From Nitrospirota bacterium (GTDB taxonomy: Bacteria; Nitrospirota; Thermodesulfovibrionia; UBA6902; DSMQ01): 36,735 nucleotides of DNA. The notes beneath the pieces are model-generated. The model was not told the DNA's origin. It saw nothing but the letters and a program-made list of their open reading frames with translations, and did not search any database. A program made the translations under genes and the position numbers. Numbering within the stretch: position 1 is the stretch's first letter; the number at the start of each line of letters is the position of its first letter. The stretch is taken from NCBI GenBank assembly GCA_016214355.1, contig JACROO010000119.1, positions 1-36,735 on the forward strand, read 5' to 3'. This document shows positions 7,837 to 36,207 of the stretch, one piece after another.

Positions 7837-7922
7837 AGGAGATGCGTAAAGAATTACAGGCTCAAGTTTCAGCTGGAAAAGGCGGGGCAAGAACATTTGT
7901 ATCTTTTAAGAATCCGCAATGA
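7695..7922 (+). CDS. head-to-tail joining protein, lambda gpW-like
   Basis: NNAIAARLSGGAVAAYSINGRNIQYIPLSELKEMRKELQAQV...GGARTFVSF parallels lambda gpW (...[38 protein letters not shown]...GPAGFYV). The stop overlaps the portal ATG (ATGA 7919-7922), as in the lambda W-B order. GTG 7695 has no SD, so the true N terminus is uncertain. Confidence 0.7.
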   Translation: MVFYSCSGRCRNYKTVNNAIAARLSGGAVAAYSINGRNIQYIPLSELKEMRKELQAQVSAGKGGARTFVSFKNPQ

Positions 7923-17674: not shown

Positions 17675-18553
17675 ATGCAGGATTTGACGGTTCAATATAA
17701 AGACGAAGCGCAGAAACAGGAAAACCGGCCTATTGAGCTGTATGATTTTTATTTAGGCTCGCAAGGATCCTGCGATGCCAATACGTTTTATTTTTGCACG
17801 GACAATAAAAGGTGCCAGTTCTGGAATTTAGACGGAGTCTTACAGTATTACATTCCGCTGGGAATAAAGCGCTCGGCTGTACCGGCAAGCAACCAGTTAG
17901 AGATTGAGGCAGTGTCAGGCGAGTTTGACAATGTGGACCGGGCATGGAGCAATTGGCTGAACACGATTGATCTAAGAGGCAGGCGGGTAGTTATTAGAAA
18001 GGTTTTTCTCGACCTGCTTACAGACCAGACGCATGCCAAGGTGATGTTTGACGGTATTGTTAATGCAGTTGCCGAGCTTACCGAGATCAGTATCAAGATT
18101 GAATGCAAATCAAAACTTAAGTCCTTGGCAGTGGAGACCGGCCGGATGCAGCAGCTTTACTGTAATTATATCTTCGGAGACGAGTTCTGCCAGTTTAATG
18201 TGGCAGCTACGAGAATAAACGGTCAGACAGCGGATGCAGGTTCAGCTACAGGGTTTGTTATCGATGCGGCAAGAAGCGAGGCTGATGACTTTTGGAATGA
18301 CGGCGTGATTCAGTTTACCTCAGGTGCTAATAACGGCCTCAAGCGCAAGGTAGTGGATTTCATTGCTGCCGAATACAAGCTTATTTTAGATTATGCTTTA
18401 CCGCAGGCACCAGCTGCAGGGGACACTTATTCAGTTGAGAAGGGATGCGATAAGTCTTTTGATGTCTGCAAAAATAGGCACAATAACCATGCAAATTTCG
18501 GCGGTTTTAAACACATTCCGCAACTGATAAATCCGATTAGCAAGGAAGAATGA
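17675..18553 (+). CDS. tail/baseplate protein with C-terminal BR0599-type domain (DUF2163-like, GTA g13-like)
   Basis: C terminus KGCDKSFDVCKNRHNNHANFGGFKHIP matches the remembered BR0599 signature (C..s...C...f.N..NFGGF..iP). Confidence 0.65.
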   Translation: MQDLTVQYKDEAQKQENRPIELYDFYLGSQGSCDANTFYFCTDNKRCQFWNLDGVLQYYIPLGIKRSAVPASNQLEIEAVSGEFDNVDRAWSNWLNTIDLRGRRVVIRKVFLDLLTDQTHAKVMFDGIVNAVAELTEISIKIECKSKLKSLAVETGRMQQLYCNYIFGDEFCQFNVAATRINGQTADAGSATGFVIDAARSEADDFWNDGVIQFTSGANNGLKRKVVDFIAAEYKLILDYALPQAPAAGDTYSVEKGCDKSFDVCKNRHNNHANFGGFKHIPQLINPISKEE

Positions 18554-21500: not shown

Positions 21501-22632
21501 CAGCGATGAAGTAATAACTGCCAGGAAATTGATAGTCGGTGAGTTGATAACATTATCAGCACAGATTAAGGATCTTGTAGTTACAAATGCCAAAATTCTT
21601 AGTCTCGATGGCAGTAAAATCACGGCTGAATCCATAACGCTTTCAAAACTAGCGGCCGATGCCATCCCCCCTAAAACATATTATCAAGATAACGAACCCG
21701 CGACAGGGATGAATGAGGGAGATTATTGGATTGATACAAATGACAGCAATAAACTTTATGTCTATCAGAGTTCGGCGTGGGTAGTAATATCACAAAGTGG
21801 AGGCGGAGGCGGTGTAACTACATTTAGGCAATCTTCTTGTCCAACAGCTACATCCGCAGGAGATCTATGGATAGATAGTGATGATAGTAAATTATATAGA
21901 GCAACGAATGCCGGTGACGATGAGGTAAAAGCCGGAGAATGGGTTCTGATAGACGCTGCCGTAGCAACGGGATGGGCGCACGGCTCTGATATAACCAAGA
22001 TTGACGGCGGAAAGATTTATACGGATTCTATTGACGCTGACAAGATAAATGTGAATCAATTGGATGCATTGGCAGTCAATACAGGCAGCCTGACGGTAGA
22101 TGAATATATAAAAAGCTCTGATTATGTGGCTGGTACCACAGGCTATAAATTGAGTTCAGGGTCAGGGTTAGAAATAAATACCGGCGTAATAAAAGGACAG
22201 GTTCTAGAAACCAATGCCATTTCAGAAATAATAACAGCTACTGAGACGAATAAGTCTACAGGCAGCACTAGTTATGTCAATTTGATTAGCGCGCAGATTA
22301 CGACCCCGGACGCAACTAAACTTTTAATATTATTTCAAGCAGGCGATTTAAGATTAAACTATCAGGAAGACCCATCCGATTGGATAGATATTCAAGTTTT
22401 AATTAATGGCGTAGAGAAAACCGGAGCCAGAGTAGGCGGGCTTTTTGCCGATATCGAAGGAGGCATACTTTTTTACAACCAAAGACTCCCAACTCAAATC
22501 CATCATTGGGAAGCCGTTAGCGCAGGAACATATACGGTCCTTGTCCGCTGGAAGATCGGAAGATCAGGTATAACCGCTTATGCGGGCGACTCTTTCGCTA
22601 TAAAACTTTCATTGATGCAAAATAAAAAATAA
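18550..22632 (+). CDS. fusion of NlpC/P60 peptidase, a hydrophobic Gly/Ala segment and a gpJ-like host-specificity/central fibre protein with FN3 repeats
   Basis: N terminus has the NlpC/P60 Cys (DCVGLMQLYF) and His (HVGLYLGYGRMLHA). Residues about 140-195 are hydrophobic (AAIAVALVIADYAAASFIAGGLISLSLTTIGCLIGTAMIGYSIGLAI). Then come a gpJ-like body (YPVPVLYGEARLAGNIVF...NPSACIRDYL), FN3-like repeats (YYVKVRTVSVNG; YYIRAFDTSGN) and W.D....LY repeats. Confidence 0.8.
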   Translation: MKKLDNELLNKLVGIKWLEDGRDFNGTDCVGLMQLYFNAKGVKGIAPKISEVEQSKQDEILKKVIETNTIVSKDDLQTEDVLVFKINDELHVGLYLGYGRMLHARKDGKSRISRLTPSWEKYFLFGIREKDGQIYIPPAGPPAAIAVALVIADYAAASFIAGGLISLSLTTIGCLIGTAMIGYSIGLAIQARQQSQSGGSSASPRYQFGELQTTSSNQYPVPVLYGEARLAGNIVFQNPVMGGEQIDLLIVLCQGEIESITDVRLNGEPIGSFPGCSCHEFLGTPTQNVEDVSGLDLDGIQYRNTAMLHVHLETSDKLKGGRPNITCICRGRKVSTWTGANWTTLKAYSDNPSACIRDYLLMKLQIGGCGYLGGDIDDLPFAEVYDFCQELVSDGIGGQEPRYTVSFCIDQKRTASDNLSEMLVGFAGALIRSGSKLKLIVAKSQAAVASFDEDDIRDLRIIQKGLDQKINRFGIEYFDPTQDDARILAWGAEDKVDQDERGLVEQTLTIPSINRKTQASRLSNQYFYELKLCPLSVEFTTSLNAVGQEIGDVIEVTHSLMGWTNKQFIIQRIEEDEKDVYKITAQEYNSSIYNDRHGATIETFDYGTPANPYAAVTDVGNLVISESDYYLHKDGTVGSDILVSFDAPADDSRVFLSHYQIELKKGSGDYNVIGTTNNTNFTIYGVEDEQTYYVKVRTVSVNGIISDGTVSLSLTVLGKLSPPANVSNFGYTFTSEIVFKWDRNTEKDLAGYEIRLEDADWGVQNSNLIYNGLSNKFTIVSPSSRTPGTYYIRAFDTSGNYSAASQSVTPTNAAPGAPVISVLQWFGFAKIEWSDVSDADLKYYSVYKSNTNAWAGEEILAYKTPGTAVIVQGNAPVDAVADSVGATGMTDATLIGKGVNYFVGDIITQTSGTHKGQFATVTAFNSSTGEVSVASWPSGTPDEGDQFVLKDRAYYKVRAVDSFGPGADSSAVTIDFTPLAESEISDEVITARKLIVGELITLSAQIKDLVVTNAKILSLDGSKITAESITLSKLAADAIPPKTYYQDNEPATGMNEGDYWIDTNDSNKLYVYQSSAWVVISQSGGGGGVTTFRQSSCPTATSAGDLWIDSDDSKLYRATNAGDDEVKAGEWVLIDAAVATGWAHGSDITKIDGGKIYTDSIDADKINVNQLDALAVNTGSLTVDEYIKSSDYVAGTTGYKLSSGSGLEINTGVIKGQVLETNAISEIITATETNKSTGSTSYVNLISAQITTPDATKLLILFQAGDLRLNYQEDPSDWIDIQVLINGVEKTGARVGGLFADIEGGILFYNQRLPTQIHHWEAVSAGTYTVLVRWKIGRSGITAYAGDSFAIKLSLMQNKK

Positions 22633-23847: not shown

Positions 23848-23940
23848 AGGGTCTGAGGAGAATAACTTTCCTCGGAGGTGAAATTCATTGATGGTCGGGC
23901 CGCCATCTTGCAGTTTTGCTGCAGGATGGCGTTTTACTTT
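23848..23940 (+). promoter_or_regulatory. conserved leader element, copy 1 (SD hairpin + invariant 21-mer + terminator)
   Basis: AGGGTC. Hairpin 23853-59/23869-75 overlaps GGAGG (23874-78). 21-mer TTGATGGTCGGGCCGCCATCT is at 23888-23908. A 12-bp stem (23902-13/23919-30) is followed by GTTTTACTTT. The same architecture is found at 29453-29543. Confidence 0.6.
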
Positions 23941-23977
23941 AAGAGTAACCACACAATCACGATGCGTATACTATTAG
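23891..23977 (+). CDS. candidate leader peptide MVGPPSCSFAAGWRFTLRVTTQSRCVYY
   Basis: ATG lies 12 nt after GGAGG. The first six codons are identical in nucleotides to the copy-2 mini-ORF. The ORF runs through the terminator and ends 16 nt inside the response-regulator gene. Confidence 0.35.
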   Translation: MVGPPSCSFAAGWRFTLRVTTQSRCVYY

Positions 23978-24630
23978 TAGAAGACGAAAAAAATATGGCA
24001 AGTTTTATCAAGCGCGGGCTTGAAGAGGAGCGCTATGTAGTCGATGTTGCCTCTAACGGGGAGAAGGCGCTTTTCTTGGCGGAAACAAATCCCTACGATT
24101 TGATAATTCTTGATGTAATGCTTCCGGATACTACCGGTCTTGTTATTTGTAAGGATTTGCGGGCTAAGAAAATAGACACTTTCATTCTCATGCTTACTGC
24201 TCGCGATGACGTTAAAGATAAAGTATTGGGCCTTGAGACTGGAGCGGACGACTATTTGGCTAAACCGTTTGATTTCGATGAGCTTCTAGCGCGGATTGCC
24301 GCGCTTTTACGCAGGAAACGCCTAGATAAAAGCCCTATTCTTAAGGTCGCGGATCTTGAATTAAACCAACTTACCCATAAAATCATACGGGCTAAAAAAG
24401 AGATAGTCTTGACCGGTAAGGAATATAGCTTACTTGAGTATCTCATGCTCCATGCCAATCAAGTAGTAACGAGGACTGAGATATCGGAACACGTTTGGAA
24501 CGAGGATTTTGACAGCTTGACCAATGTCATAGATGTATTTATAAACCGGTTGCGTAACAAGATTGACCAAGGTTTTAAGAAAAAGCTTATTCATTCTCTT
24601 CGCGGTACGGGCTACATACTTAAGGAATAA
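23962..24630 (+). CDS. OmpR/PhoB-family response regulator
   Basis: The receiver domain starts at MRILLVEDEK, with the ...DLIILDVMLPD phospho-acceptor region. C-terminal winged helix: LTGKEYSLLEYLM...VIDVFINRLRNKI...IHSLRGTGY. Confidence 0.9.
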   Translation: MRILLVEDEKNMASFIKRGLEEERYVVDVASNGEKALFLAETNPYDLIILDVMLPDTTGLVICKDLRAKKIDTFILMLTARDDVKDKVLGLETGADDYLAKPFDFDELLARIAALLRRKRLDKSPILKVADLELNQLTHKIIRAKKEIVLTGKEYSLLEYLMLHANQVVTRTEISEHVWNEDFDSLTNVIDVFINRLRNKIDQGFKKKLIHSLRGTGYILKE

Positions 24631-24632
24631 CG

Positions 24633-26087
24633 ATGCAAAAATCTTTTCGCCGAAAAGTTATGACCGGATTTTGGGTAATGGTATTCCTGTGCGCATTTAC
24701 GGTCCTATTTGCTTTTATAACTACGCGTAACATGCAGAGGGTTTTCTTGAGTACCATGAGAGATAATGTTGCGGCCCTTAAGGCAGCAGAGGAGTTGGAA
24801 CTGGCTTTGCTTAGCCAAAAAGGCTTTTTATCAAATTATTTTTTAGACGGCAATCCAACCTGGATAAAAAAACTCGAAGAAAAGAAAACTATCTTCTTGG
24901 ATTGGCTTAACAAGGCGTCAGATGCCGCTTTGACTCCGCCGGAAAAAGACATCATTGAAGACATTAAACGTCTTTACAAAATATATGAGACCGAGCGCTA
25001 TAAGGCTAAGCATCTTTATGATTCGGGGAATGTTCGGGGCGCTAAAAACGTACTTCTTAAAGACATGTGGGAGGCTTTCGAGGCCCTATATCAAAAGTGC
25101 GAGGATTTTATTCGTATTAACGAATCGATTATTGACAAATCAGAGGTTTCTTTACAAAGAAAAATCATAGGTATGATGGTCTTGATCACGGTTCCTGCGT
25201 TGGTTATAATTGCATTAGTCGGCTCCATGTTCTTTTTGTTAACGAGAAGAATTCTCGCTTCCGTTAAGGACATTACAATAACAACTCGTAATATTAATCT
25301 TAAAAGCCTAAGCGGGCGGGTGAGCACCGCAAATTTGGAAACGGAAATGGAGTATCTGGCTAAATCAATCAACATGATGCTTGAACGTCTGGAACGGTCT
25401 TTTGAATATATTAAGGAATTCAGCTCAAGTATCGGCCATGAATTAAAGAGTCCGCTTGCGATTATTAAAGGAGAGTCCGAGGTTGCATTACGCAAAGAAA
25501 GACAAGTTGAGGATTATCGAAAAGCCTTGAGCGTCAATATCGAAGAAGCAAATAGAATGATCCGCATTGTCGAAGATTTGGTTTTTTTGGCAAAACTCGA
25601 TTACAATCCGGATAATATCAAGAAAGAAGTTTTTGATTTTATTCCGTTTTTTGCGGATATACAGAAACGCGCTCAAACGCTTGTTGCGCAAAAACAAATA
25701 GAGCTTACAGCCACGATTCCCGAAGTCGCCGTTACTTTAGAGGGTAACAAATTGCATTTGAGCCGCCTGTTTTTTAATCTTATTCAGAACGCCGTTAAAT
25801 TTACGTCTTCAGGAGGAAGAATCAATCTATCCGTTCATCCGGAAAACGGCGTATTAAAGGTTTCTATATCGGATACGGGCCTAGGAATCAGCGAAGAAGA
25901 TTTACCCAGGATATTTCAGCGGTTTTTCCAAAAAGGAAAATCCGAATCGGAAAGCAGCGACAGTATCGGCCTGGGTCTAAGCATTGCCAAATCAATTGCA
26001 AAGTTTCATAGTGGCGACATTGAGGTAAAAAGCAAGCCCGGAGAAGGCTCAACTTTTTCCGTAATCCTGCCTATTTTTCACCCCTGA
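24633..26087 (+). CDS. membrane sensor histidine kinase (2 TM, HAMP, HisKA, HATPase_c)
   Basis: Starts 2 nt after the regulator stop. H-box is FSSSIGHELKSPLAII, N-box NLIQNAVKFT, G-boxes DTGLGI / GLGLSIAK. Confidence 0.9.
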   Translation: MQKSFRRKVMTGFWVMVFLCAFTVLFAFITTRNMQRVFLSTMRDNVAALKAAEELELALLSQKGFLSNYFLDGNPTWIKKLEEKKTIFLDWLNKASDAALTPPEKDIIEDIKRLYKIYETERYKAKHLYDSGNVRGAKNVLLKDMWEAFEALYQKCEDFIRINESIIDKSEVSLQRKIIGMMVLITVPALVIIALVGSMFFLLTRRILASVKDITITTRNINLKSLSGRVSTANLETEMEYLAKSINMMLERLERSFEYIKEFSSSIGHELKSPLAIIKGESEVALRKERQVEDYRKALSVNIEEANRMIRIVEDLVFLAKLDYNPDNIKKEVFDFIPFFADIQKRAQTLVAQKQIELTATIPEVAVTLEGNKLHLSRLFFNLIQNAVKFTSSGGRINLSVHPENGVLKVSISDTGLGISEEDLPRIFQRFFQKGKSESESSDSIGLGLSIAKSIAKFHSGDIEVKSKPGEGSTFSVILPIFHP

Positions 26088-26641: not shown

Positions 26642-26865
26642 AGCAGGGATATCTGATGAAAAGCATAATCGGAATGAAACTTATATTTGCAATCTTGATA
26701 GCAATACTATTAGACGGATGCACGTTTATTGTTAAAGACGACCATGCCGCAAAATATTACGGTATAGACGAACAGCGGGGTGGTGAGTATTTGAATCAAA
26801 TCCTTGAGAAGCAGCAGCAAGTATATCAGACCGAAAAGGTTTCTGTTGGTTCCAAAAGGCCATAA
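26638..26865 (+). CDS. small lipoprotein candidate
   Basis: ATGA overlap with the receiver gene. Signal sequence with lipobox LLDGC. Confidence 0.5.
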   Translation: MKQGYLMKSIIGMKLIFAILIAILLDGCTFIVKDDHAAKYYGIDEQRGGEYLNQILEKQQQVYQTEKVSVGSKRP

Positions 26866-26878
26866 ACGGGGTGATTAT

Positions 26879-27826
26879 ATGAAAAAAATAATATTGGCGG
26901 TTGTTCTTGTTTTAACATTCTCCAATTTAAGCTATGCGGATTTTAAGCAGGAAAGAGAAGCAAAAAGAGAAAGCGAATTAAAAGAGCTTCAGAAGCGTTT
27001 TGAATGGTGGCCAACAGATGCAAAGCCGGGGCCGGTTAAGGATCCCGAGCGCGGCGGCTACTGGTGGTGGCCTAATGAGCCGGGTAAGGCGCGCCCCTGG
27101 GGTAATCGAGGATATGTGTATGTTTACAAGATTATTTTTGATTACAAGGAAGAAGAATTACCTCCTCCTAAGCCGCAGGAGCTCCGTCCTTCGTTACTTA
27201 TTAAGAAGATAATTAAGAACGTGAAAGTATATTTCGACTACGATAAAGCGGTCCTGCGAGATGATGCGGTAAGAATTCTTAAGAGCGCTATTGGAACTCT
27301 TAAGCGCAACCCGGAAACAAGCATTCTTGTTACCGGCAATTGCGATCGCCGCGGGTCGGAAGTCTATAATGAAAAATTAGGGAAACGCCGGGGAGAGGCG
27401 GTAAAGCGTTTTATGCTGGAGAATGGTATTGATGAATCCCGAGTAAAGATTATCAGCCGCGGTAAGTTGGATGCTATTGCTCGCGTTACAGATTTGGAGG
27501 GGATGCAAAAGGAAAGAAATGCCCAGTTTATGATCGCCGAAGTTGAGGAAGTTATGCTGCCGTATCCGGGAGTACCGCAGGAAGCTGAAGCAAAACCGGT
27601 AGAAGAAGGCAAGTATATTATTGAGAAGGAAGAGAAAGTCGAGGCAGAAGTCAAGGTAAGCACCAGAGAGTACACGGTTAAAAAAGGCGATACCCTTTCA
27701 AAAATAGCCAAAGAGCAGCTCGGCGCAGCGCATCGTTGGAAATATCTGTACGAATTAAACAAAAATGTTATTAAGGATCCCAATAAACTTAGGCCGGGGA
27801 AGAAAATAGTTATTCCGATTGAGTAG
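26879..27826 (+). CDS. OmpA-family peptidoglycan-associated protein with C-terminal LysM
   Basis: Signal peptide MKKIILAVVLVLTFSNLSYA. OmpA-like block is VYFDYDKAVLRDDA...LVTGNCDRRGSEVYNEKLGKRRGEAVKRFM. LysM is YTVKKGDTLSKIAKEQLG...LRPGKKIVIP. The track's upstream start 26804 is rejected. Confidence 0.85.
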   Translation: MKKIILAVVLVLTFSNLSYADFKQEREAKRESELKELQKRFEWWPTDAKPGPVKDPERGGYWWWPNEPGKARPWGNRGYVYVYKIIFDYKEEELPPPKPQELRPSLLIKKIIKNVKVYFDYDKAVLRDDAVRILKSAIGTLKRNPETSILVTGNCDRRGSEVYNEKLGKRRGEAVKRFMLENGIDESRVKIISRGKLDAIARVTDLEGMQKERNAQFMIAEVEEVMLPYPGVPQEAEAKPVEEGKYIIEKEEKVEAEVKVSTREYTVKKGDTLSKIAKEQLGAAHRWKYLYELNKNVIKDPNKLRPGKKIVIPIE

Positions 27827-27842
27827 CGGAGCCTTTTTAAGC

Positions 27843-28418
27843 ATGCTTAAGACACTGTTTTATATATTACCCCTCTTGCTGGTCGTGGTTATGTTTTTTG
27901 CGCCAGCGCGTAACTATGTAAATGGTCTATTGCATCGGGATAAGAAGGAATTACGCGAGGAAGAGGTTATCGGCAGAGTTTCCGGTTATAATCCGCGAGT
28001 CGGAGAAATACAGAAAGTCCTGAAGGAAGCCGGTTTTGACCCCGGTCCGGCGGATGGAATCATGGGAGCGCAGACAAGGACGGCAATTAAGGGGTTTCAG
28101 AAGGCGAAGGGATTGAAGTCTACCGGCAAGATAGATTCGGTAACTCGGCTTGCCTTAAATAGGACAGAGGAAGTCAAAAAGCCCGAGTTTAAGGAAGAGC
28201 CAGAACCTGATTCATGGGGAAATACTTCCTCCGATAAGTCAAAGCAGATTCAGATGGCTCTTAAGAGCTCCGGATTTTATAAAGGGGAGATAGACGGAAA
28301 AATAGGGCCTCGAACTAAAACCGCGTTAAGAGCTTTTCAAAAGGCAAACAATCTTAATCCAGACGGGGTAATAGGGTCTAAAACGTGGGAAGCACTAAAA
28401 AAATACCTGAAGAACTGA
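27843..28418 (+). CDS. membrane-anchored protein with two PG_binding_1 domains
   Basis: N-terminal TM segment, then IQKVLKEAGFDPGPADGIMGAQTRTAIKGFQKAKGL and IQMALKSSGFYKGEIDGKIGPRTKTALRAFQKANNL. No catalytic domain visible. Confidence 0.8.
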   Translation: MLKTLFYILPLLLVVVMFFAPARNYVNGLLHRDKKELREEEVIGRVSGYNPRVGEIQKVLKEAGFDPGPADGIMGAQTRTAIKGFQKAKGLKSTGKIDSVTRLALNRTEEVKKPEFKEEPEPDSWGNTSSDKSKQIQMALKSSGFYKGEIDGKIGPRTKTALRAFQKANNLNPDGVIGSKTWEALKKYLKN

Positions 28419-28447
28419 ATATCTTTTATTAAACAGGAGGAGAAGCT

Positions 28448-28843
28448 ATGTTTACAAGAATGATTTTGGTTGTTTTTCTTGCTTTTGCTTTAGCGGGGTG
28501 CGCAACGAATTCTAAAAAGCCGGCTACGCAATCACAGCCCGTAATGTCACAAAAAACATATCAGCAGGAATCGTATTTCAAGGGTTATGATGATAATGAT
28601 ACACGGTCGTCAGATAGCTATGAAAAACCGACTAAGAAAAATTATTCTGAACCCGTAATAGAATTAAGTCCAAAACAGATTCAGCGGACGTTGAAAAAAG
28701 CCGGTTTCTACAAGGGCGAGATTGACGGAAAAGTCGGATCTAAGACAAAAGAAGCTATTATGAGGTTTCAAAAAGCACACGGTCTCAAGGCTGACGGTAT
28801 TGTAGGTAAGAGAACAAGCGAAGAACTACGTAAATATCTTTAA
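28448..28843 (+). CDS. lipoprotein with one PG_binding_1 domain
   Basis: SD AGGAGGAG. Lipobox LAGC. IQRTLKKAGFYKGEIDGKVGSKTKEAIMRFQKAHGLKADGIVG. Confidence 0.8.
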   Translation: MFTRMILVVFLAFALAGCATNSKKPATQSQPVMSQKTYQQESYFKGYDDNDTRSSDSYEKPTKKNYSEPVIELSPKQIQRTLKKAGFYKGEIDGKVGSKTKEAIMRFQKAHGLKADGIVGKRTSEELRKYL

Positions 28844-29338: not shown

Positions 29339-29395
29339 TTTTATCTACATTGCTATAGCTTACCGTATAAGGAGTTCTAAATGAATTGCAATTTT

Positions 29396-29424
29396 TTGAC
29401 ATTGCTATATAATGACACTAATGT
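29396..29424 (+). promoter_or_regulatory. sigma70-like promoter candidate for the OmpA/trehalose operon
   Basis: TTGACA (29396-401), a 17-nt spacer, then TAATGT (29419-24). Overlapped by the second copy of the 11-nt repeat ACATTGCTATA. Confidence 0.45.
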
Positions 29425-29452: not shown

Positions 29453-29543
29453 AGGGTCCGGGAATACTTAAATATTCCCGGAGGAATTTTTGATGGTCGG
29501 GCCGCCATCTGAGTTAATCTCGGGTGGTGGCTTTTTATTTTTT
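29453..29543 (+). promoter_or_regulatory. conserved leader element, copy 2 (SD hairpin + invariant 21-mer + terminator)
   Basis: AGGGTC. A 9-bp hairpin (29458-66/29473-81) overlaps GGAGG (29480-84). The 21-mer is at 29490-29510. An 11-bp stem (29501-11/29521-31, 3 G.U pairs) is followed by TTTTTATTTTTT. Confidence 0.6.
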
Positions 29544-29564
29544 ACAACCAAGGGAAAAACATGA
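29493..29564 (+). CDS. candidate leader peptide MVGPPSELISGGGFLFFTTKGKT
   Basis: ATG lies 8 nt after GGAGG. The stop TGA 29562-64 overlaps the ATG of the next gene (ATGA). Confidence 0.4.
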   Translation: MVGPPSELISGGGFLFFTTKGKT

Positions 29565-29686
29565 AAACATTTTTTCAGGTGTTCAAAGAAGAGAAAGAAA
29601 TGAGATTTATTTTTGCAATTTTTACTGTCATGATTTTATTGGGCATAGGCTGCGTTATATTCGCCGTCGCTCATCCAGCAAGCTAA
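29561..29686 (+). CDS. 41-aa single-pass membrane protein (below track cutoff)
   Basis: MKTFFQVFKEEKEMRFIFAIFTVMILLGIGCVIFAVAHPAS. Start is coupled to the leader mini-ORF stop. Confidence 0.45.
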   Translation: MKTFFQVFKEEKEMRFIFAIFTVMILLGIGCVIFAVAHPAS

Positions 29687-29699
29687 TGGAGGATTACTC

Positions 29700-30371
29700 A
29701 TGAAGGCCCGGGTAACAATTTCTGCGATTCTAATAGTATCTATGTTATCTGGGTGCGCCTATATCCAGAAAGCCAAGAGAACCGATGAGCTTGAAGCTGA
29801 AAATGCCAGCCTAAGAAATAAGATTGGCCAACTTCAGAAAGAAAAAACAAAGGAAGTCCGGCGGATTTATGAGGAAAAAGATAAAGAGCTCTCCGAGCTT
29901 GAGCGGGCAAAACGCGAACTGGAAGAATCGTTAAAACAGGAAATCGGAGAATATAAGGCAAAGCTACAAATGACCGAGCGGGGCCTGGTGATTACTTTTG
30001 TTTCCGAAATATTCTTTGATTCAGGCAAAGACAAATTGAAATCTGACGGCATGATGACGCTTAATAAAGTCGCCGAAGTTTTGAATAAAGAAGTTCCTAA
30101 TTCAAATATGGCTGTCGAAGGTCATACCGATAACGATCCTATAAAACATTCTGGATGGAAGTCAAATTGGGAGCTCTCTTCTGCCCGGGCACTGGCAGTA
30201 TTGCACTATCTTATTAGCGAAGGCAAAATTAGGCCGCAGCGTCTTTCTGCAAACGGCTATGGAGAATTTCATCCTGTAGCGCCAAATGATACAGTGCAGA
30301 ATAAGCAGAACAATAGAAGGGTGGAAATCGTAATTCTGCCTTCCAAATTAAGCAAAGTGAAACTGCAGTAG
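29700..30371 (+). CDS. OmpA/MotB-domain lipoprotein with N-terminal coiled coil
   Basis: SD GGAGG. Lipobox LSGC. Coiled coil covers about residues 30-90. OmpA-like C-terminal domain: VEGHTDNDPI...NWELSSARALAVLHYL...GYGEFHPVAPNDT..NRRVEIVI. Confidence 0.85.
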   Translation: MKARVTISAILIVSMLSGCAYIQKAKRTDELEAENASLRNKIGQLQKEKTKEVRRIYEEKDKELSELERAKRELEESLKQEIGEYKAKLQMTERGLVITFVSEIFFDSGKDKLKSDGMMTLNKVAEVLNKEVPNSNMAVEGHTDNDPIKHSGWKSNWELSSARALAVLHYLISEGKIRPQRLSANGYGEFHPVAPNDTVQNKQNNRRVEIVILPSKLSKVKLQ

Positions 30372-30388: not shown

Positions 30389-30586
30389 ATGTTTGATAAA
30401 ATGAACGAGAGATTAAGAAAATTAACGGTAATGGACATAGGGTTGGTAAAATGGTCGGCTTTTTTTGCAGCTGTTATAATTGTTAAACTTTTCCCGCAGC
30501 TTTTGAAAATTAACTACGGGGTTCTTATATTATTAACGATAGCTTGCGGTGCCAGGCCACTATACAAGTTTTGGATTAAAAAATAA
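30389..30586 (+). CDS. small two-TM membrane protein
   Basis: SD AAAGGAG. 65 aa with two hydrophobic segments. Confidence 0.55.
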   Translation: MFDKMNERLRKLTVMDIGLVKWSAFFAAVIIVKLFPQLLKINYGVLILLTIACGARPLYKFWIKK

Positions 30587-30605: not shown

Positions 30606-32843
30606 ATGAGAAGAGTATTTTTATTTATCCTACCCATTCTAATTATTGTTTCCGCGGCCTTTACGCTTTTTGGCTTCTTTCAGGTGCGCTTTGAAGAAGA
30701 GAAGCTTATTGATGATTTGAAAAGAAAAGCCAAAAGCGTTGCCGAAAGCATGGAATTGTCGGTACAGCATGTGCTTTCAGCCAATGATTTAAAAAATGCC
30801 AATTATCTTGCCGAGAAATTTGAGACTAGGGAAAGATTGCAGGGTTGTGTTATTTACGATAAAGACGGCAACATAATAGCGCTTACCAAAAGATTCGGTG
30901 ATTGGAAAGAAAAAGACAAGCCGTATATTAAAGATATTATAGCGAATAAGACTCCGCGGGGAGAGTTGGAGAAATTCAAAGATTATCAGGTTTATAGTTA
31001 TATTCTCCCTATAGTTGATGATGCGGGGCAGTTTTTGGGAATGGTTGAGGTTATACATGATACTTCCTATGTCTTCGCGAGATTGACTGAACTTTGGAAG
31101 CGCATTAGCTCAACGTTAATAATCTTAGTAGTAGTAATTTTTATTATCTCCATTTTTCTTCACAGGCAGATTTTTGCTCTGCCAGTACAGCGTTTAACAG
31201 ATTGGTTTAAGCATTTCCAGAAAGGCGAAACTGACGAAGCGCATCCAATAAGGGAAAAAGGAGATCTGGGTAAGCTTGCCAGCGAAGTCGAGCAGGTAGC
31301 ATTATCTTTAAGGGTTGCCCGAAGGACGATTTCAGATGAAGCGCAGGCACGCATGGAAAAAGAAGAAATATGGACAGAGGCAAAATTAAAGGATCTAGTC
31401 CATGCGAAGTTAGGAGAGAATGCCTTATTTATAGTGTCCAACCGTGAGCCTTATATGCATACAATAGATGAGGCAACTGGTTTAGAACAATGCATCAGGC
31501 CGGCAAGCGGCGTTGTTACTGCGATTCACCCGGTTCTATGCGCTTGTGGCGGCACATGGGTTGCTCATGGTGCTGGCAATGCGGATAAGAAATTCGTAAA
31601 TTCAAAGGATAAGCTCGGTGTTCCGCCTAAAGATATACGTTATATTCTTAAAAGAGTCTGGCTGGATAAAGAAGAAGAGGATGGCTACTATTACGGATTT
31701 TCCAACGAGGGCTTATGGCCGTTATGCCACAATACGCATACGAGGCCGGTTTTTCGGGAGTTGGACTGGCAGGCTTACAAAAAGGTGAATCAGAAGTTTG
31801 CGGATTCCGTTTTGGAGGAATTACCCGTCAAACATCCTTTTGTATTTATTCAAGATTATCATTTCACTCTGCTCGGGAAGATGATTAAAGAAAGGCGCCC
31901 CGATGCTACAATTGCGCTTTTTTGGCATATTCCCTGGCCTACACCGGAGGCATTCTCCATCTGCCCTTACCGCAAAGAGATTCTTGAAGGCATGCTTGGG
32001 TGCGATTTGATAGGTTTTCATGTCCAGAATCATTGCAACAATTTTCTTGATACAGCCAACAGACTCCTTGAATCAAGGGTTGATATAGAAAAATTCAGCA
32101 TTGTCCGTTCTGAAAAGGAAACTTTTGTTAGAGCATTTCCGATTAGCGTTAACGGGCATTTTAACCAAGCTGCGAAGGACGCGGACATAAAACGAGAGAT
32201 AGATAAAATTAAAAAAGAGTTTGACTTGGAAGGTAAAATTATAGGTTTGGGGGTTGACAGGATTGACTATACAAAGGGTATCGTTGAGAGAGTGCTTGCT
32301 ATAGACAGGTTTTTAGAGAAATACCCTCAATACAAGAAAAAATTCGTTTTTATTCAGCTTGCCGCTCCAAGCCGTGTGCATATAAAGCGTTATCATGACC
32401 TTATGGCAGAAATTGACGAATTAATCGAGAAGAAAAACTGGAAGTATTCTGATTCTGGCTGGAAGCCGATTGTTTATCTTAAAAGGCATTTTTCTTTGGA
32501 TGAAATCGAGCCTTTCTATAAAATGGCTGATCTTTGTATTGTAAGCTCGCTTCATGACGGCATGAACCTTGTGGCCAAAGAATATGTGGCAGCCAGAAAA
32601 GATTTGTCAGGGAGCCTTATATTAAGCCAATTTACCGGCGCAGCAAGAGAGCTTGTCGATGCTATTCAGGTAAACCCGTATTCAATAGAGGAGTTTGCCG
32701 ATAGCATACAATTAGTTCTTCAGATGCCACAGGATGAGAAAACAAAACGCATGGAAAAAATGCGGAAAGTTATTTCGGAGAATAATGTTTATCGCTGGGC
32801 AGGAAATATCATCACTGAGCTAGCGGCACTAAAGAAAGTATAA
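30606..32843 (+). CDS. otsA: membrane sensor-HAMP domain fused to trehalose-6-phosphate synthase (GT20)
   Basis: TM1 is at residues 4-25. An extracytoplasmic region of about 140 aa has Cache/PDC-like strands (GCVIYDKDGNIIALT; YSYILPIVDDAGQFLGMVEVIHD). TM2 (LIILVVVIFIISIFL) and a HAMP-like linker follow. GT20 motifs: FIVSNREPY, YYYGFSNEGLWPLCH, FIQDYHFTLL, FWHIPWP, DLIGFH, SLHDGMNLVAKEY. Confidence 0.85.
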   Translation: MRRVFLFILPILIIVSAAFTLFGFFQVRFEEEKLIDDLKRKAKSVAESMELSVQHVLSANDLKNANYLAEKFETRERLQGCVIYDKDGNIIALTKRFGDWKEKDKPYIKDIIANKTPRGELEKFKDYQVYSYILPIVDDAGQFLGMVEVIHDTSYVFARLTELWKRISSTLIILVVVIFIISIFLHRQIFALPVQRLTDWFKHFQKGETDEAHPIREKGDLGKLASEVEQVALSLRVARRTISDEAQARMEKEEIWTEAKLKDLVHAKLGENALFIVSNREPYMHTIDEATGLEQCIRPASGVVTAIHPVLCACGGTWVAHGAGNADKKFVNSKDKLGVPPKDIRYILKRVWLDKEEEDGYYYGFSNEGLWPLCHNTHTRPVFRELDWQAYKKVNQKFADSVLEELPVKHPFVFIQDYHFTLLGKMIKERRPDATIALFWHIPWPTPEAFSICPYRKEILEGMLGCDLIGFHVQNHCNNFLDTANRLLESRVDIEKFSIVRSEKETFVRAFPISVNGHFNQAAKDADIKREIDKIKKEFDLEGKIIGLGVDRIDYTKGIVERVLAIDRFLEKYPQYKKKFVFIQLAAPSRVHIKRYHDLMAEIDELIEKKNWKYSDSGWKPIVYLKRHFSLDEIEPFYKMADLCIVSSLHDGMNLVAKEYVAARKDLSGSLILSQFTGAARELVDAIQVNPYSIEEFADSIQLVLQMPQDEKTKRMEKMRKVISENNVYRWAGNIITELAALKKV

Positions 32844-32847
32844 CAGT

Positions 32848-33639
32848 ATGGAATATTTATTTGATCAGTGGGGGCAAGTCAAAAGGAAGCTAAACAATAA
32901 GCACATTGTGTTCTTTTTTGACTACGATGGGACTTTAACTCCGATTGCGGAAACTCCGCAGCAAGCGGTAATTCCTAGACAGGTGAAAGAATTGTTGAGG
33001 AAGTTATCACGAAAACCTAATTGTGCATTAGCCATTATCAGCGGGAGGGCGCTGGAAGATATAAAAGATCTCGTTAGGTTAAAAGGTATTATTTATGCCG
33101 GTAATCATGGGCTGGAAATTGAAGGCCCGAAAATTAAATTTGAAAGCCAGGTTTCACCGAGATTAAAGTCAGTTATACGCAATATTTATGAAGATATGGT
33201 TAACAAGCTTTCAAAAATCAAAGGAGTTTTAATAGAAGATAAAGGATTAGCTATCGGCGTGCACTATCGTTTGGTGGATGCAACAGATATCCAGGAGTTT
33301 TTGAACATCTTTTCCGAGATTACCGAGTCTTTTACGGTACGCGATAAGATTAAAATTAATGAAGGTAAAAAGGTGTATGAAATTAGGCCTCCGGTTGCTT
33401 GGGATAAAGGTAAAACAGTATTATGGCTTTTAGCAAGGCAGCAATTTTTAGTAGGCGAAGATAAAATTTTTCCCATCTACTTTGGGGATGATATAACCGA
33501 CGAAGACGGCTTCAGGGCATTAAAGAATAAAGGGTTAACAATATTTGTAGGCGAGCCAAAAGCCTCAGAAGCGGCTTATTATGTAAGGAATACAGAAGAG
33601 ATTACTCAGTTTATAAAGAAAGTTTTGGAGTTAGAATAG
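32848..33639 (+). CDS. otsB: trehalose-6-phosphate phosphatase (HAD family)
   Basis: Starts 4 nt after otsA. HAD motif I is FFFDYDGTLTP. ISGR, GNHG and the C-terminal GDDITDEDGF motifs are present. Confidence 0.85.
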   Translation: MEYLFDQWGQVKRKLNNKHIVFFFDYDGTLTPIAETPQQAVIPRQVKELLRKLSRKPNCALAIISGRALEDIKDLVRLKGIIYAGNHGLEIEGPKIKFESQVSPRLKSVIRNIYEDMVNKLSKIKGVLIEDKGLAIGVHYRLVDATDIQEFLNIFSEITESFTVRDKIKINEGKKVYEIRPPVAWDKGKTVLWLLARQQFLVGEDKIFPIYFGDDITDEDGFRALKNKGLTIFVGEPKASEAAYYVRNTEEITQFIKKVLELE

Positions 33640-33641
33640 CT

Positions 33642-34316
33642 ATGGCGCTAATATTAAAAGCAAAAGAGCCGTTTAGGTTTTACACACGTCTGCATTTATC
33701 AGAATTAACCGGTTTAAGAGCCACTACCTTAGATCAGCTGGTTAAGCTTATTAAGGATGTACCGGGATCTTGCATTTATCATCATACTCATAGGTTTTTG
33801 CAGCAACATCAGTTTTTTTCGCCCGAACCTCCAAACGACTTTGCCTATTGGGTTAGCGAAATATTAGGAGAGAAAGAGCTTGGCGAGCGGCTTGCAAGTA
33901 TAGATATAATGCAGTTCGCGAAAATTCATGATCTACGAGAGAGAATTATTTCAGTGATTGAAGAGTATTTAAAGGAGGGGCGTTTTGCCCAGCTTAAATT
34001 TGCCCGGGAAGGCGAAGAATTTTATTTTATAAAATCAGTGAGTTTTGTTATCCCGACAAATCACGTTGCCGACAACTTGGCAGATTTCGTTGAGATTATA
34101 AAGAAAATTACCTTTGATTCGATATATTTTCATATCTTTGAAGCGCGTCTGCGGCTTGAAAAGAAAGCAAACGACTTTTCTAACTGGATAGAGAATTCTG
34201 TTGGAAATAAGGAGCTTGCGGATGAGCTTGCGGCTTTAGATCCTTATACACGGACTCTTGATGACTTACGAAGCGCGATTATCAGCATTATCAATAAGAA
34301 ATTATTTGAGCAATGA
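33642..34316 (+). CDS. conserved hypothetical protein linked to trehalose genes (possibly DUF5752-like)
   Basis: 224-aa ORF, 2 nt after otsB and overlapping treT by 4 nt. The family assignment is only a recollection. Confidence 0.6.
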   Translation: MALILKAKEPFRFYTRLHLSELTGLRATTLDQLVKLIKDVPGSCIYHHTHRFLQQHQFFSPEPPNDFAYWVSEILGEKELGERLASIDIMQFAKIHDLRERIISVIEEYLKEGRFAQLKFAREGEEFYFIKSVSFVIPTNHVADNLADFVEIIKKITFDSIYFHIFEARLRLEKKANDFSNWIENSVGNKELADELAALDPYTRTLDDLRSAIISIINKKLFEQ

Positions 34317-35524
34317 TAAAACTTGAAGAATACATACCGATTGTAGGCCAATCCGTAATTGACGATTTAAGATTGATTGCAACCCGCCTTAAAGGCAAAA
34401 CCATACAGCACATTAACTCAACTTCTGTTGGAGGCGGAGTAGCTGAGATTCTTAGCCGTATGGTGCCTTTATTACAGGAATTAGGTGTTGGCGCGCGTTG
34501 GGATTTGATTAAGGGAGGGGAGCAGTTTTTTGAAGTTACTAAAAAATTCCATAATGCGCTGCATGGTTATCCAGGCGAAATAACAAAAAGAGACTTCGAG
34601 ATCTTCCTTGAAACAAGTCAGCAAAATATCAATGAGGTAGATACGTGCGGAAATATTGTGTTCATCCATGATCCCCAGCCGATTGCGCTGGTCAAGAGAA
34701 GACAGGGCAATAAGTGGCTTTGGCGTTGCCATGTTGATGTGTCTGATCCCAATGAAAAGGTTTGGAATTTTCTTATGGAATATATCGTGCGCTATGATGC
34801 AGCGGTATTTTCCGCTCCTAGTTTTTCGCGCAGGCTGCCGATTCGCCAGTTTCTGATTTCGCCATCAATTGATCCTTTAAGCGATAAGAATAAAGAATTG
34901 TCGCAGGAAACCATAGATAGAGTGTTGCTAAAATACCAAATTCCTAAAGATAAGCCTATTGTTACCCAGATATCGCGTTTTGACCGTTTAAAGGATCCTT
35001 TAGGAGTGATTGAAGCATACAGAGAAGTTAAAAAGTATATTAATTGCCGATTAGTTTTAGCAGGCGGCGGCGCTTCTGACGACCCAGAAGGGACAATGGT
35101 ATTTACGCAGGCGATGGAAATGGCAAAAAAAGACAAAGATATCCATGTTTTGCTTCTTCCGCAGAACGATATAGAAATCAATGCCTTGCAGCGGGCATCT
35201 ACGGTAATTATCCAGAAATCAATCCGGGAAGGCTTTGGTCTTACGGTTTCGGAGGCTCTATGGAAAGCAAAGCCGGTTGTAGCTTCTAATGTCGGTGGTA
35301 TTCCTTTACAGGTAAAACATAAATATTCTGGCCTATTATGTCATTCTATTCAGGGAGCTTCTTTCGCAATTAAGCAGCTCTTAAATAGCCCAGCATACGC
35401 GAAGAAATTAGGGGAGAATGGCAAAGAACATATTCGGAATAATTTTCTGATCACTCGGCATTTAAGGGATTATATGCTTTTGTTCCTTTCGCTATATCAT
35501 GGAGAGGATGTCGTTTATTTGTAA
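34313..35524 (+). CDS. treT: trehalose glycosyltransferring synthase, TreT-type (GT4)
   Basis: Blocks matching remembered archaeal TreT: INSTSVGGGVAEIL, FHNALHG, HDPQP, WLWRCHVD, SPSIDPLSDKN, VTQISRFD, DDPEG, NALQRAS, IREGFGLTVSEA, NFLITRH. Confidence 0.8.
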   Translation: MIKLEEYIPIVGQSVIDDLRLIATRLKGKTIQHINSTSVGGGVAEILSRMVPLLQELGVGARWDLIKGGEQFFEVTKKFHNALHGYPGEITKRDFEIFLETSQQNINEVDTCGNIVFIHDPQPIALVKRRQGNKWLWRCHVDVSDPNEKVWNFLMEYIVRYDAAVFSAPSFSRRLPIRQFLISPSIDPLSDKNKELSQETIDRVLLKYQIPKDKPIVTQISRFDRLKDPLGVIEAYREVKKYINCRLVLAGGGASDDPEGTMVFTQAMEMAKKDKDIHVLLLPQNDIEINALQRASTVIIQKSIREGFGLTVSEALWKAKPVVASNVGGIPLQVKHKYSGLLCHSIQGASFAIKQLLNSPAYAKKLGENGKEHIRNNFLITRHLRDYMLLFLSLYHGEDVVYL

Positions 35525-35536
35525 GAAGGAGATCGC

Positions 35537-35674
35537 ATGAAGCCTAGTGGTTGGATTTTTATGATTATTTCGTGGAGTTTTATTATCGGCATGCTTATAT
35601 TTTGCTATAGTCGAATATTCAGAAAAGACCTTGGCGGGGAAGATTCCAAAACATTAAAACGGCTTAGGAAATAG
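35537..35674 (+). CDS. tiny single-pass membrane protein 1 (45 aa)
   Basis: SD AAGGAG. Product is MKPSGWIFMIISWSFIIGMLIFCYSRIFRKDLGGEDSKTLKRLRK. Below the track cutoff. Confidence 0.45.
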   Translation: MKPSGWIFMIISWSFIIGMLIFCYSRIFRKDLGGEDSKTLKRLRK

Positions 35675-35683
35675 GAGGGGTTT

Positions 35684-35812
35684 GTGTCAACAAGTATATT
35701 ACAACAGTTAGGAGTTCTTGCTCTTGCAGTTTTGTTTTCGGTGTTATTTACTTCTATGAATAATAGAGAATCAAAAAATAAAAAAGAACGATTAAATAGC
35801 ATGAAAGAATAA
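35684..35812 (+). CDS. tiny single-pass membrane protein 2 (42 aa, GTG start)
   Basis: SD AGGAGGGG precedes GTG 35684. Product is MSTSILQQLGVLALAVLFSVLFTSMNNRESKNKKERLNSMKE. Confidence 0.4.
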   Translation: MSTSILQQLGVLALAVLFSVLFTSMNNRESKNKKERLNSMKE

Positions 35813-35910
35813 GAAAATGAACTAGACAGGGCAGGTGTTTGCTATGAGTATGGCAGTTACGTTTGTAGCTGCGGCATCTCCTATTTTGTTTGATTAACGA
35901 GAGGTTAAAA

Positions 35911-36033
35911 TTGGAAGACATCTTGCGTTCTTTAGCACCTATTATTGTTGTTTTAACGCTCATAATTTTCTCTGTAGCTTTTTCACATAAGATTAAAGAA
36001 GAAAATAAGCGTGATAAAGAAGATAAAAATTAA
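35911..36033 (+). CDS. tiny single-pass membrane protein 3 (40 aa, TTG start)
   Basis: GAGG lies 6 nt before TTG 35911. Product is (M)EDILRSLAPIIVVLTLIIFSVAFSHKIKEENKRDKEDKN. Confidence 0.35.
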   Translation: MEDILRSLAPIIVVLTLIIFSVAFSHKIKEENKRDKEDKN

Positions 36034-36051
36034 AAAAAGGAGAAATAAAAT

Positions 36052-36195
36052 ATGACTGGTAACTTATGGCAGGATTGGCCGGTGTATGTCCTTTTGGGAG
36101 CAGTAGTATTCTTTTTTGGGTATGTGATTATAAAAGGAAACATGCCGGATAAGCAAAGTAAGGGAAAAGATGATAATGAGGAAGTTAAGAAATAA
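36052..36195 (+). CDS. tiny single-pass membrane protein 4 (47 aa)
   Basis: SD AAAGGAG. Product is MTGNLWQDWPVYVLLGAVVFFFGYVIIKGNMPDKQSKGKDDNEEVKK. Confidence 0.45.
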   Translation: MTGNLWQDWPVYVLLGAVVFFFGYVIIKGNMPDKQSKGKDDNEEVKK

Positions 36196-36207
36196 AGAGG
36201 CGTTAAG

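Follow-up and report, generated by a model that had tools for sequence, protein, structure and literature searches.

By analyzing a stretch of 36,735 nucleotides (nt) from a Nitrospirota bacterium (contig JACROO010000119.1 of assembly GCA_016214355.1; hereafter the window), we found that a gene at positions 30606–32843 encodes a trehalose-6-phosphate (T6P) synthase of the OtsA type whose catalytic domain, a family 20 glycosyltransferase (GT20), is fused to an N-terminal transmembrane (TM) input module. This module has the order TM helix, periplasmic PDC/Cache domain, TM helix, HAMP and linker. The initial annotation of this DNA had described the same layout ahead of a complete GT20 region, and it was right in every part. 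The fusion is real, widespread in uncultured bacteria and found in salt-stress operons, and it has apparently never been studied. Judging from sequence and predicted structure, we consider it fairly likely that the protein is a transmembrane receptor-enzyme that adjusts T6P synthesis post-translationally within a salt/osmotic-stress operon.

The fused gene and its domains

The 745 amino acids (aa) of the protein are encoded by one unbroken reading frame. An in-frame TAA stands immediately 5' of the ATG at 30606, and no other start keeps the first TM helix (TM1). This ATG has no Shine-Dalgarno (SD) sequence and lies 19 nt past the stop of a 65-aa open reading frame (ORF) with a strong SD, so that translational coupling would be a reasonable explanation. 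For comparison of starts and frames, we extracted the orthologous ORFs from 83 related loci. In most of them the first start gives M-[KR]-x and then TM1; in the remaining ones a contig end truncates the gene, or the first in-frame start is found at a position further 5'. Many of these loci, Omnitrophota ones above all, have a GGAG-type SD, and in all loci uncut by a contig end the frame is unbroken over 741–882 aa from the first possible start. The initial annotation had treated the start as provisional; the preceding TAA, the position of TM1 and the conserved N-terminus show that ATG 30606 is correct and rule out an alternative start. A separate N-terminal gene or a frameshift artefact is ruled out as well, since the frame is continuous here and in the uncut relatives and the junction is fixed.

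Pfam Glyco_transf_20 (PF00982) matches residues 274–740 with 416.6 bits (gathering score 32.5; E 1.7e-124) over positions 3–472 of the 473 in its profile. By sequence, the closest solved structure is M. thermoresistibile OtsA (5jij; E 1.9e-84), aligned from residue 270, and the GT20 part of an AlphaFold2 (AF2) model lies on the OtsA/Tps1 structures 5l3k, 5hut, 1uqu and 1gz5 with target-normalised TM-scores of 0.85–0.90. The motifs SNREP, PASG, YYYGFSNEGLWP and QDYH are present, starting at residues 278, 299, 361 and 416, and so are WHIPWP (440), VDRIDYTKG (550), APSR (587) and DGMNLVAKEY (651). We take the acceptor, donor and catalytic residues of E. coli OtsA to be R9, G22, Y76/W85, D130, H154, R262/K267, R300 and D361/E369. 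The arginine of NREP presumably corresponds to Arg9, which we take to bind the phosphate of glucose-6-phosphate and to lie only eight residues from the N-terminus of that enzyme; the fusion point would thus adjoin the acceptor site.

Among NCBIfam models, those for T6P synthases score highest, and TIGR02400 (OtsA) is the best single-function one. Equivalog cut-offs are missed for OtsA (428.9 vs 564.85), for the bifunctional T6P synthase/phosphatase (492 vs 634) and for GgpS (314.9 vs 569). Because the TIGR02400 score lies under its cut-off, the hidden Markov model (HMM) does not fix the exact substrate specificity. The catalytic domain is complete with all motifs checked, and the protein is a predicted T6P synthase.

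Upstream of this domain, hydropathy (19-residue window) gives two strong peaks at about residues 4–26 and 167–190, and the MRR ahead of TM1 is consistent with an N-terminus-in topology. The AF2 monomer model of the 745 aa, built from a 97-sequence alignment (pLDDT 83.2, pTM 0.69), places the elements in the following order. Helix 2–48 comprises TM1 and a periplasmic helix and is followed by an alpha/beta domain up to residue 152; a single helix (154–205) then runs from the sensor via the second TM helix (TM2) into HAMP helix 1. After a loop (206–219) come helix 220–249, made of HAMP helix 2 and its extension, a break at 250–257, helix 258–269 and the GT20 strand 274–278.

A separate model of residues 26–168 (pLDDT 89.6, pTM 0.82) has a PDC/Cache fold, in which a long helix at the N-terminus precedes a central antiparallel sheet with helices on its flanks and a C-terminal helix leads into TM2. 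Its best Foldseek matches in the PDB are the extracellular domain of S. aureus WalK/YycG (4ywz, 7dud and 5is1; TM-score 0.76–0.78, root-mean-square deviation 2.8 Å), followed by DcuS (3by8; TM-score 0.70–0.75), CitA (2j80), DctB and KinD. Also, the N-terminal 246 residues match the N-terminus of the NCBIfam WalK sensor kinase model (E 2.7e-11). Several relatives at 76–86% identity carry a precomputed match to Pfam sCache_3_2 (PF17203), and a match to it at E <= 0.001 was found in 8 of 48 N-terminal homologues.

The HAMP domain was recognized in relatives of the window protein. Two fused relatives exceed the Pfam HAMP gathering score at the same position (P0219, 26.5 bits at residues 188–236; P0295, 25.8 bits), and kinase paralogues with the same N-terminal module reach 55–58 bits at residues 187–236. 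When a profile of 17 fused N-termini was compared with the histidine kinase P0194 by hhalign (99.2%, E 1.7e-19, 287 columns), the HAMP regions were in register; HisKA begins at residue 266 of P0194, and GT20 at residue 274 of the window protein. The HAMP hallmarks are kept as well: in alignment A2 of 17 sequences, E227 is invariant together with L235, W256, L261 and NREP, and P193 nearly so, and G207 is at least 90% conserved in alignment A3.

We measured segment lengths and identities on an alignment of 81 full-length members from many phyla. Four lengths are constant in all 81: TM1 (22 residues), TM2 (23), P193 to G207 (14) and W256 to N279 (23). Moreover, E227 and W256 are 29 residues apart, and E227 and N279 52 residues apart, in 77 of the 81. 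Variable lengths are confined to the HAMP connector (18–25 residues) and to loops of the sensor. Between the window protein and distant members, identity is 0.54 in GT20, about 0.26 in the sensor, 0.28 in HAMP and 0.29 in the linker, and the TM segments are the least conserved (0.17–0.19).

A metagenomic member of 913 aa, P0139, has an enlarged or duplicated periplasmic region with SMP_2/CHASE8-like matches before its HAMP-GT20 part; the input module has therefore undergone remodelling within this receptor family.

Distribution and comparison with known systems

The initial annotation implied that such a fusion is rare; this proved wrong, as several phyla have it commonly. We found intact orthologues in at least 78 species-level genomes, which belong to Omnitrophota, Elusimicrobiota, Acidobacteriota, Nitrospirales, Gemmatimonadota, Desulfobacterota, Ignavibacteriota and Verrucomicrobiota. 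Of the best 120 database matches of the full protein, nearly all are close to 745 aa in length (719–864), with 73–94% identity and 92–100% query coverage, and the named ones among them are mostly Omnitrophota metagenome-assembled genomes (MAGs). By searching with an acidobacterial member, we found at least 120 further full-length proteins from soil metagenomes. Existing annotation reads 'trehalose-6-phosphate synthase', with one match called 'trehalose-6-phosphate synthase/HAMP domain-containing protein'. As the gene family is thus already in databases under a generic name, the novelty lies in recognizing and explaining the architecture and the regulon, not in the sequence.

We also scanned GTDB species, each represented by a single genome, for the junction motif [LFI]x[VI]V[SA]NREPY, which gave more than 599 sites, 492 of them confirmed by tblastn. 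The N-terminal module is present in all of the best 80 junction loci, two of which are cut by contig ends. These 80 loci are labelled Omnitrophota, Elusimicrobiota, Acidobacteriota (Terriglobia, Acidiferrum, Sulfotelmatobacter, Bryobacteraceae), Nitrospirales, Gemmatimonadota, Syntrophaceae/Syntrophus, Thermodesulfobacteriota, Ignavibacteriota and Verrucomicrobiia. Taxon labels of relatives are the titles of MAG records, some of which are probably mis-binned; this probably holds for loci labelled 'Planctomycetia', 'Patescibacteria' and 'Proteobacteria', with 61–66% identity over the N-terminal 310 residues, and for the 'Spirochaetes' locus, with 79% full-length identity. No cultured host is named among the 240 best full-length matches or the best 80 loci, which all come from MAGs or metagenomes.

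The locus L001 (GCA_001829495.1, 'Spirochaetes bacterium RBG_16_49_21') has a fused gene about 79% identical to that of the window, with the riboswitch described below, adjoining flaA genes and without otsB, orfY or treT. This copy reflects either horizontal transfer into a spirochaete or a binning error.

Searched against 1.84 billion cluster representatives, residues 1–272 gave 701 matches at E <= 1e-3 and 164 at E <= 1e-10. Forty-nine representatives span the end of the module and run on for at least 45 residues; 35 of these enter GT20 at the same junction, and the remainder include histidine kinases. Among 48 N-terminal homologues scanned, the outputs were GT20 (17), HisKA (9) and GGDEF (2), and Pfam HAMP was found in 11.

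The fused protein shares with soluble OtsA/Tps1 enzymes (E. coli 1gz5/1uqt, M. thermoresistibile 5jij, Candida 5hut) the GT-B fold, 30–34% identity, the motifs and the otsB partner. Unlike them, it has 273 extra N-terminal residues. The solved OtsA chains, of about 455–515 residues, begin only shortly ahead of the NR(x)P loop, and the N-terminal module of the window protein (first 267 residues) has no match in any of them. In the accessible text of two studies, known regulation of OtsA is allosteric or by complex formation, not transmembrane (PMC6879718; PMC3634074).

Histidine kinases of the WalK/YycG type with HAMP, including the metagenomic paralogues P0194 and P0201, have the same input layout, homologous sequence and the closest sensor fold, and their output starts at about the same distance after HAMP as GT20 does in the fused protein. 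However, the output of the fused protein is a biosynthetic GT-B glycosyltransferase instead of a DHp/CA core, and neither a phosphorelay nor a response regulator takes part. Adenylyl cyclases, GGDEF diguanylate cyclases and PP2C phosphatases are other receptor-enzymes in which HAMP and a rigid linker control catalysis in the same chain. Whereas cyclases and phosphatases make or remove signalling molecules, the output of the fused protein is a step in compatible-solute synthesis, so that the 'signal' would be metabolic flux.

In about 8.3 million full texts we found no description of a fusion between OtsA or T6P synthase and HAMP, TM or sensor domains, and no account of it in work on DUF5752 or on Omnitrophota and trehalose; one Omnitrophota paper merely lists trehalose synthesis genes. 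The possibility raised in the initial annotation, that the architecture is common and already characterised, is borne out for its frequency and apparently not for its characterisation.

Upstream riboswitch, proposed mechanism and alternatives

The strongest clue to the physiological role of the fused gene is an nhaA-I riboswitch upstream of it (Rfam RF03057, 56.8 bits, gathering score 37), which the initial annotation had missed. It overlaps an intrinsic terminator: the loop of aptamer stem P2 and the 3' arm of that stem make up the 5' arm of the terminator, with bases 29499–29509 common to terminator and stem, and this overlap has ON-switch geometry. In the two closest relatives examined (L084 and L085; 90–91% protein identity), the ATG of the fused gene comes about 45 nt after riboswitch and terminator. 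Of 48 further loci scanned with Rfam, 27 have an RF03057 match that exceeds the gathering score 5' of the fused gene and on its strand, in 12 of them directly upstream within 200 nt, so that 29 related loci have it in all. The same aptamer-terminator layout recurs in relatives. The gene between riboswitch and fused gene in relatives is usually that of the mechanosensitive channel MscS (Omnitrophota), and in two Elusimicrobiota loci it is a Na/Ca exchanger (Pfam Na_Ca_ex; L078 4883–5866 and L080 5020–5949).

The accessible text of White et al. shows nhaA-I RNAs to be riboswitches for Li+, describes a response to Na+ in rare variants that bear a terminator ('Na+-II'), and notes that genes for T6P synthase are 'occasionally associated' with the class, possibly as part of an osmotic response (PMC9646797). 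Compared with these Li+-I/Na+-II regulons, the window aptamer is above the Rfam threshold and has a terminator platform like that of the Na+-responsive variants. Those variants are, in the same text, reported only from Deltaproteobacteria; we found terminator-type variants upstream of the fused family in Omnitrophota- and Elusimicrobiota-labelled genomes and in one labelled Verrucomicrobiia. The accessible text makes no mention that the associated T6P synthase is a membrane sensor fusion, and the 'occasional' association it describes now gains a concrete gene family.

The window holds a second nhaA-I copy (23849–23908, +; 48.3 bits). It has a terminator-like hairpin of its own and lies at the 5' end of the gene for an OmpR-type response regulator (23878–24630). 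Next comes the gene for a histidine kinase (24633–26087) containing 4HB_MCP, HAMP, HisKA and HATPase domains. It seems unusual for a cation riboswitch to control a two-component system. The GTG listed as start of the regulator gene overlaps the aptamer, and the true start is probably further downstream. Other Rfam matches in related loci are apparently unrelated: a group I intron (L002 11803–12042, -), an FMN riboswitch (L011 9072–9206, +) and a 2dG-II purine riboswitch (L038 1622–1739, +).

The best-supported reading of the fusion is, as the initial annotation had proposed, that an envelope or periplasmic signal would directly gate the glycosyltransferase, because the input module is homologous to that of kinases and diguanylate cyclases, the linker length is invariant and the context is one of osmotic or ionic stress. 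The WalK-like PDC/sCache domain would take up a cue in the periplasm, which, given the gene context, would most likely have to do with ionic or osmotic conditions outside the cell or with the state of the envelope. From the sensor, the signal would pass through TM2 to HAMP, and from there through the fixed-length linker to the first strand of the cytoplasmic GT20 domain, which bears the NREP loop. T6P synthesis may be raised or lowered by the signal, and the OtsB encoded next to the synthase would turn the product into trehalose. As with other HAMP receptors, the protein probably forms a homodimer. The riboswitch, which senses cytoplasmic Li+/Na+, would separately control transcription of the gene string, so that with the RNA sensing inside and the protein sensor facing outside, trehalose production would be controlled at two levels. 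The main argument for such signalling, an indirect one, is that a conserved connection of fixed length between HAMP and the catalytic loop is expected of a mechanically coupled receptor-enzyme and not of a passive tether.

Several observations weigh against this reading. Residues 185–245 of the window protein match Pfam HAMP (PF00672) as their sole Pfam family, over profile positions 9–52 of 53, at 13.1 bits (E 0.13) against a gathering score of 25. Likewise, sCache_3_2 reaches 24.6 bits on the full protein and 27.0 on the N-terminus alone, below its gathering score of 28.4, and single-Cache and double-Cache models also match just under threshold. Thus, the HMM and hydropathy searches suggested by the initial annotation returned the TM peaks and GT20 and left HAMP and sCache sub-threshold, and for this reason the two latter calls rest on relatives, profile-profile comparison and fold. 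No ligand-binding residues or pocket could be assigned in the sensor domain. The break at 250–257, between HAMP helix 2 with its extension and helix 258–269, means that the linker is not one continuous signalling helix in the model, and a monomer model cannot show a HAMP four-helix bundle or contact between linker and active site. As for the riboswitch, it lies in the window 1.1 kb 5' of the fused gene with three ORFs between, so co-transcription would have to extend across these, and a promoter-like site at 30503–30531 could drive the fused gene on its own; such sites are no more numerous in the region than expected from shuffled sequence. RF03057 was not found in 21 of the 48 loci scanned, and a pattern search did not detect the riboswitch in most of the more distant loci, including all those of Acidobacteriota.

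The N-terminal module could instead be an anchor or scaffold that tethers and dimerises OtsA at the inner membrane, for example near MscS or transporters, without any signalling and with regulation left to the riboswitch. The sub-threshold sensor and HAMP scores, the missing pocket and the low sensor identity between distant members all fit this view, and riboswitch control alone could explain induction by salt. However, a folded PDC domain, HAMP and a linker length invariant across phyla would be superfluous for a plain anchor. The conservation of RERLxG and HDxSY in the periplasmic part, of P193, G207 and E227 in HAMP and of W256 and L261 in the linker, as well as the use of the same module as input of histidine kinases and diguanylate cyclases, also speak against it, and we regard an anchor as unlikely. 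If the protein does signal, sensing might take place in the membrane or cytoplasm, with the TM bundle and HAMP responding to lateral pressure or ionic strength and the periplasmic domain being structural. Osmotic sensing via TM or cytoplasmic parts has been reported for PhoQ and EnvZ, and the strictly constant TM lengths and the association of the gene with mechanosensitive channels and cation exchangers would suit such a receptor. Yet the TM sequences are the least conserved part between distant members, the periplasmic motifs are conserved, and the enlarged or duplicated periplasmic region of P0139 suggests that the input domain matters; sensing of this kind therefore appears quite improbable.

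Another alternative concerns the output, namely that GT20 makes a different sugar phosphate, such as glucosylglycerol-phosphate, or is a non-catalytic binder like plant class II T6P synthases. It draws on the scores below the equivalog cut-offs. Against it, OtsA models score highest, the 18 best-matching solved structures were deposited as T6P synthases bar one labelled phosphatase, all donor, acceptor and catalytic motifs checked are retained, and a T6P phosphatase gene above its equivalog cut-off lies 4 nt downstream and is conserved there. We consider this alternative highly improbable.

Returning to gating of the synthase by an external signal, a broader claim is about evenly balanced: that the family is a new class of HAMP receptors with GT-B output, in which a cue would reversibly set trehalose synthesis without phosphorelay or transcription, layered on the riboswitch so that both signals would be needed. 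What is known of how bacteria start compatible-solute synthesis in the seconds after an osmotic or ionic shock concerns mainly transcription and allosteric ion effects. If the proposal is true, a synthase with its own transmembrane sensor would be a direct and testable solution to fast switch-on. A metabolic glycosyltransferase would also join the outputs driven by HAMP, and release of uridine diphosphate (UDP) would offer an easy in vitro assay of HAMP signalling. Soil Acidobacteriota and groundwater Omnitrophota have the family in abundance, and it may therefore matter for drought and salt tolerance of these uncultured majority taxa.

Neighbouring genes and other features of the window

Coordinates of the fused gene, its domains and the surrounding elements are given in Table 1. 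On the 3' side of the riboswitch all genes lie on the forward strand with gaps of 0–50 nt: a 41-aa ORF, an OmpA-family gene, the 65-aa ORF, the fused gene, otsB, a DUF5752 gene and a TreT-type gene.

Table 1. Fused gene, its domains and adjacent elements (window positions; + denotes the forward strand)
Feature	Position	Strand	Basis or remark
Promoter-like site TTGCAA-16-TATAAT	29386..29413	+	Consensus match only; upstream of riboswitch
nhaA-I (Li+-I / Na+-II class) aptamer	29454..29510	+	Rfam RF03057
Intrinsic terminator hairpin and T-run	29499..29543 (hairpin 29499-29533)	+	Overlaps aptamer stem P2
41-aa hydrophobic ORF	29561-29686	+	
OmpA-family lipoprotein-like gene	29700..30371	+	Pfam OmpA E 2.3e-19; between riboswitch and fused gene
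65-aa hydrophobic ORF	30389..30586	+	Strong SD
Sensor-HAMP-GT20 fused gene	30606..32843	+	745 aa; stop codon within coordinates
TM1 (~residues 4-26)	30615..30683	+	Hydropathy; AF2 helix 2-48; constant length
Extracytoplasmic PDC/sCache sensor (~residues 27-166)	30684..31103	+	HMM, model, Foldseek; conserved RERLxG and HDxSY
TM2 (~residues 167-190)	31104..31175	+	Hydropathy; within AF2 helix 154-205; constant length
HAMP (~residues 191-240)	31176..31325	+	Helix 1 with P193, connector from G207, helix 2 with E227
Fixed-length linker (residues 241-273)	31326..31424	+	Extension of HAMP helix 2, loop with invariant W256-T257, helix 258-269 into GT20 strand 1
GT20 (OtsA-type) catalytic domain (residues 274-745)	31425..32840	+	Pfam, NCBIfam, PDB match, fold, motifs
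otsB, T6P phosphatase	32848..33639	+	Trehalose_PPase E 2e-46; TIGR00685 182.3 bits vs 68.05
DUF5752, Thermoproteus tenax OrfY homologue	33642..34316	+	Pfam E 4e-72; PDB 4cso E 5.9e-24
TreT-type trehalose synthase (GT4)	34313..35524	+	TreT_GT1 and Glycos_transf_1; 6zj4 E 1e-127, 2x6q E 2e-103

The otsB gene is kept downstream in most related loci. The PDB entry matched by the DUF5752 protein, 4cso, is deposited as 'OrfY protein, transcription factor'. With OtsA-OtsB and OrfY-TreT genes together, the operon combines the OtsAB and TreT routes to trehalose. The OrfY-TreT pair accompanies the fused otsA in about 50 loci of several phyla; in five Acidobacteriota loci it does so with no otsB detected by tblastn. 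Neither of the two candidates examined upstream is a conserved partner: the 65-aa ORF has no homologue in the 83 related loci, and the OmpA-like gene is not kept at that position in relatives.

MscS genes adjoin the fused gene in at least 16 loci, often between riboswitch and fused gene. They lie immediately upstream in L006, L008, L010, L012, L014, L022, L025, L028–L030, L035 and L036, and between otsA and otsB in L023 and L033; no MscS gene is found at this place in the window. The conserved cluster of Na+/Li+ riboswitch, MscS, sensor-OtsA, OtsB, OrfY and TreT makes up a compact salt-stress module. In T. tenax, a trehalose synthase operon with a mechanosensitive channel has been described, the TPSP-GT-MSC operon and complex (PMC3634074). 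As in many Omnitrophota relatives, T6P synthesis is there genetically linked to a mechanosensitive channel; the synthase is activated post-translationally, as proposed for the fused protein, and the OrfY-TreT pair of the window has T. tenax counterparts. However, the activator in T. tenax is a separate glycosyltransferase and the synthase is fused to its phosphatase, whereas the window synthase is fused to its own membrane sensor.

After treT, a run of tiny ORFs (about 31–59 aa, hydrophobic in the window) occupies 35525–36200 (+). Similar runs in the closest relatives (L084 12940–13561 and L085 12942–13696) are preceded by an nhaA-I riboswitch and followed by an ArsB/CitMHS-type transporter; unlike these, the window run has no riboswitch there.

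Upstream of the trehalose genes, 26804–28843 (+) encodes a protein with OmpA and LysM domains and then two small secreted-looking proteins, with repeats that by eye resemble peptidoglycan-binding ones. In L011, a similar OmpA/LysM gene and a small protein ending in the same repeat lie downstream of an nhaA-I riboswitch, and from this arrangement such envelope proteins may belong to the same cation-responsive regulon. Further upstream, positions 1–23000 (+) look like a prophage or phage-derived block. It encodes an HTH_36 protein, a protein with ParB_N and N6/N4 DNA methylase domains and a gpA-type large terminase (3246–5126), followed further on by a lambda-family portal protein (7919–9520) and a 1360-aa tail protein (18550–22632) with NlpC/P60, Phage-tail_3 and fn3 matches.

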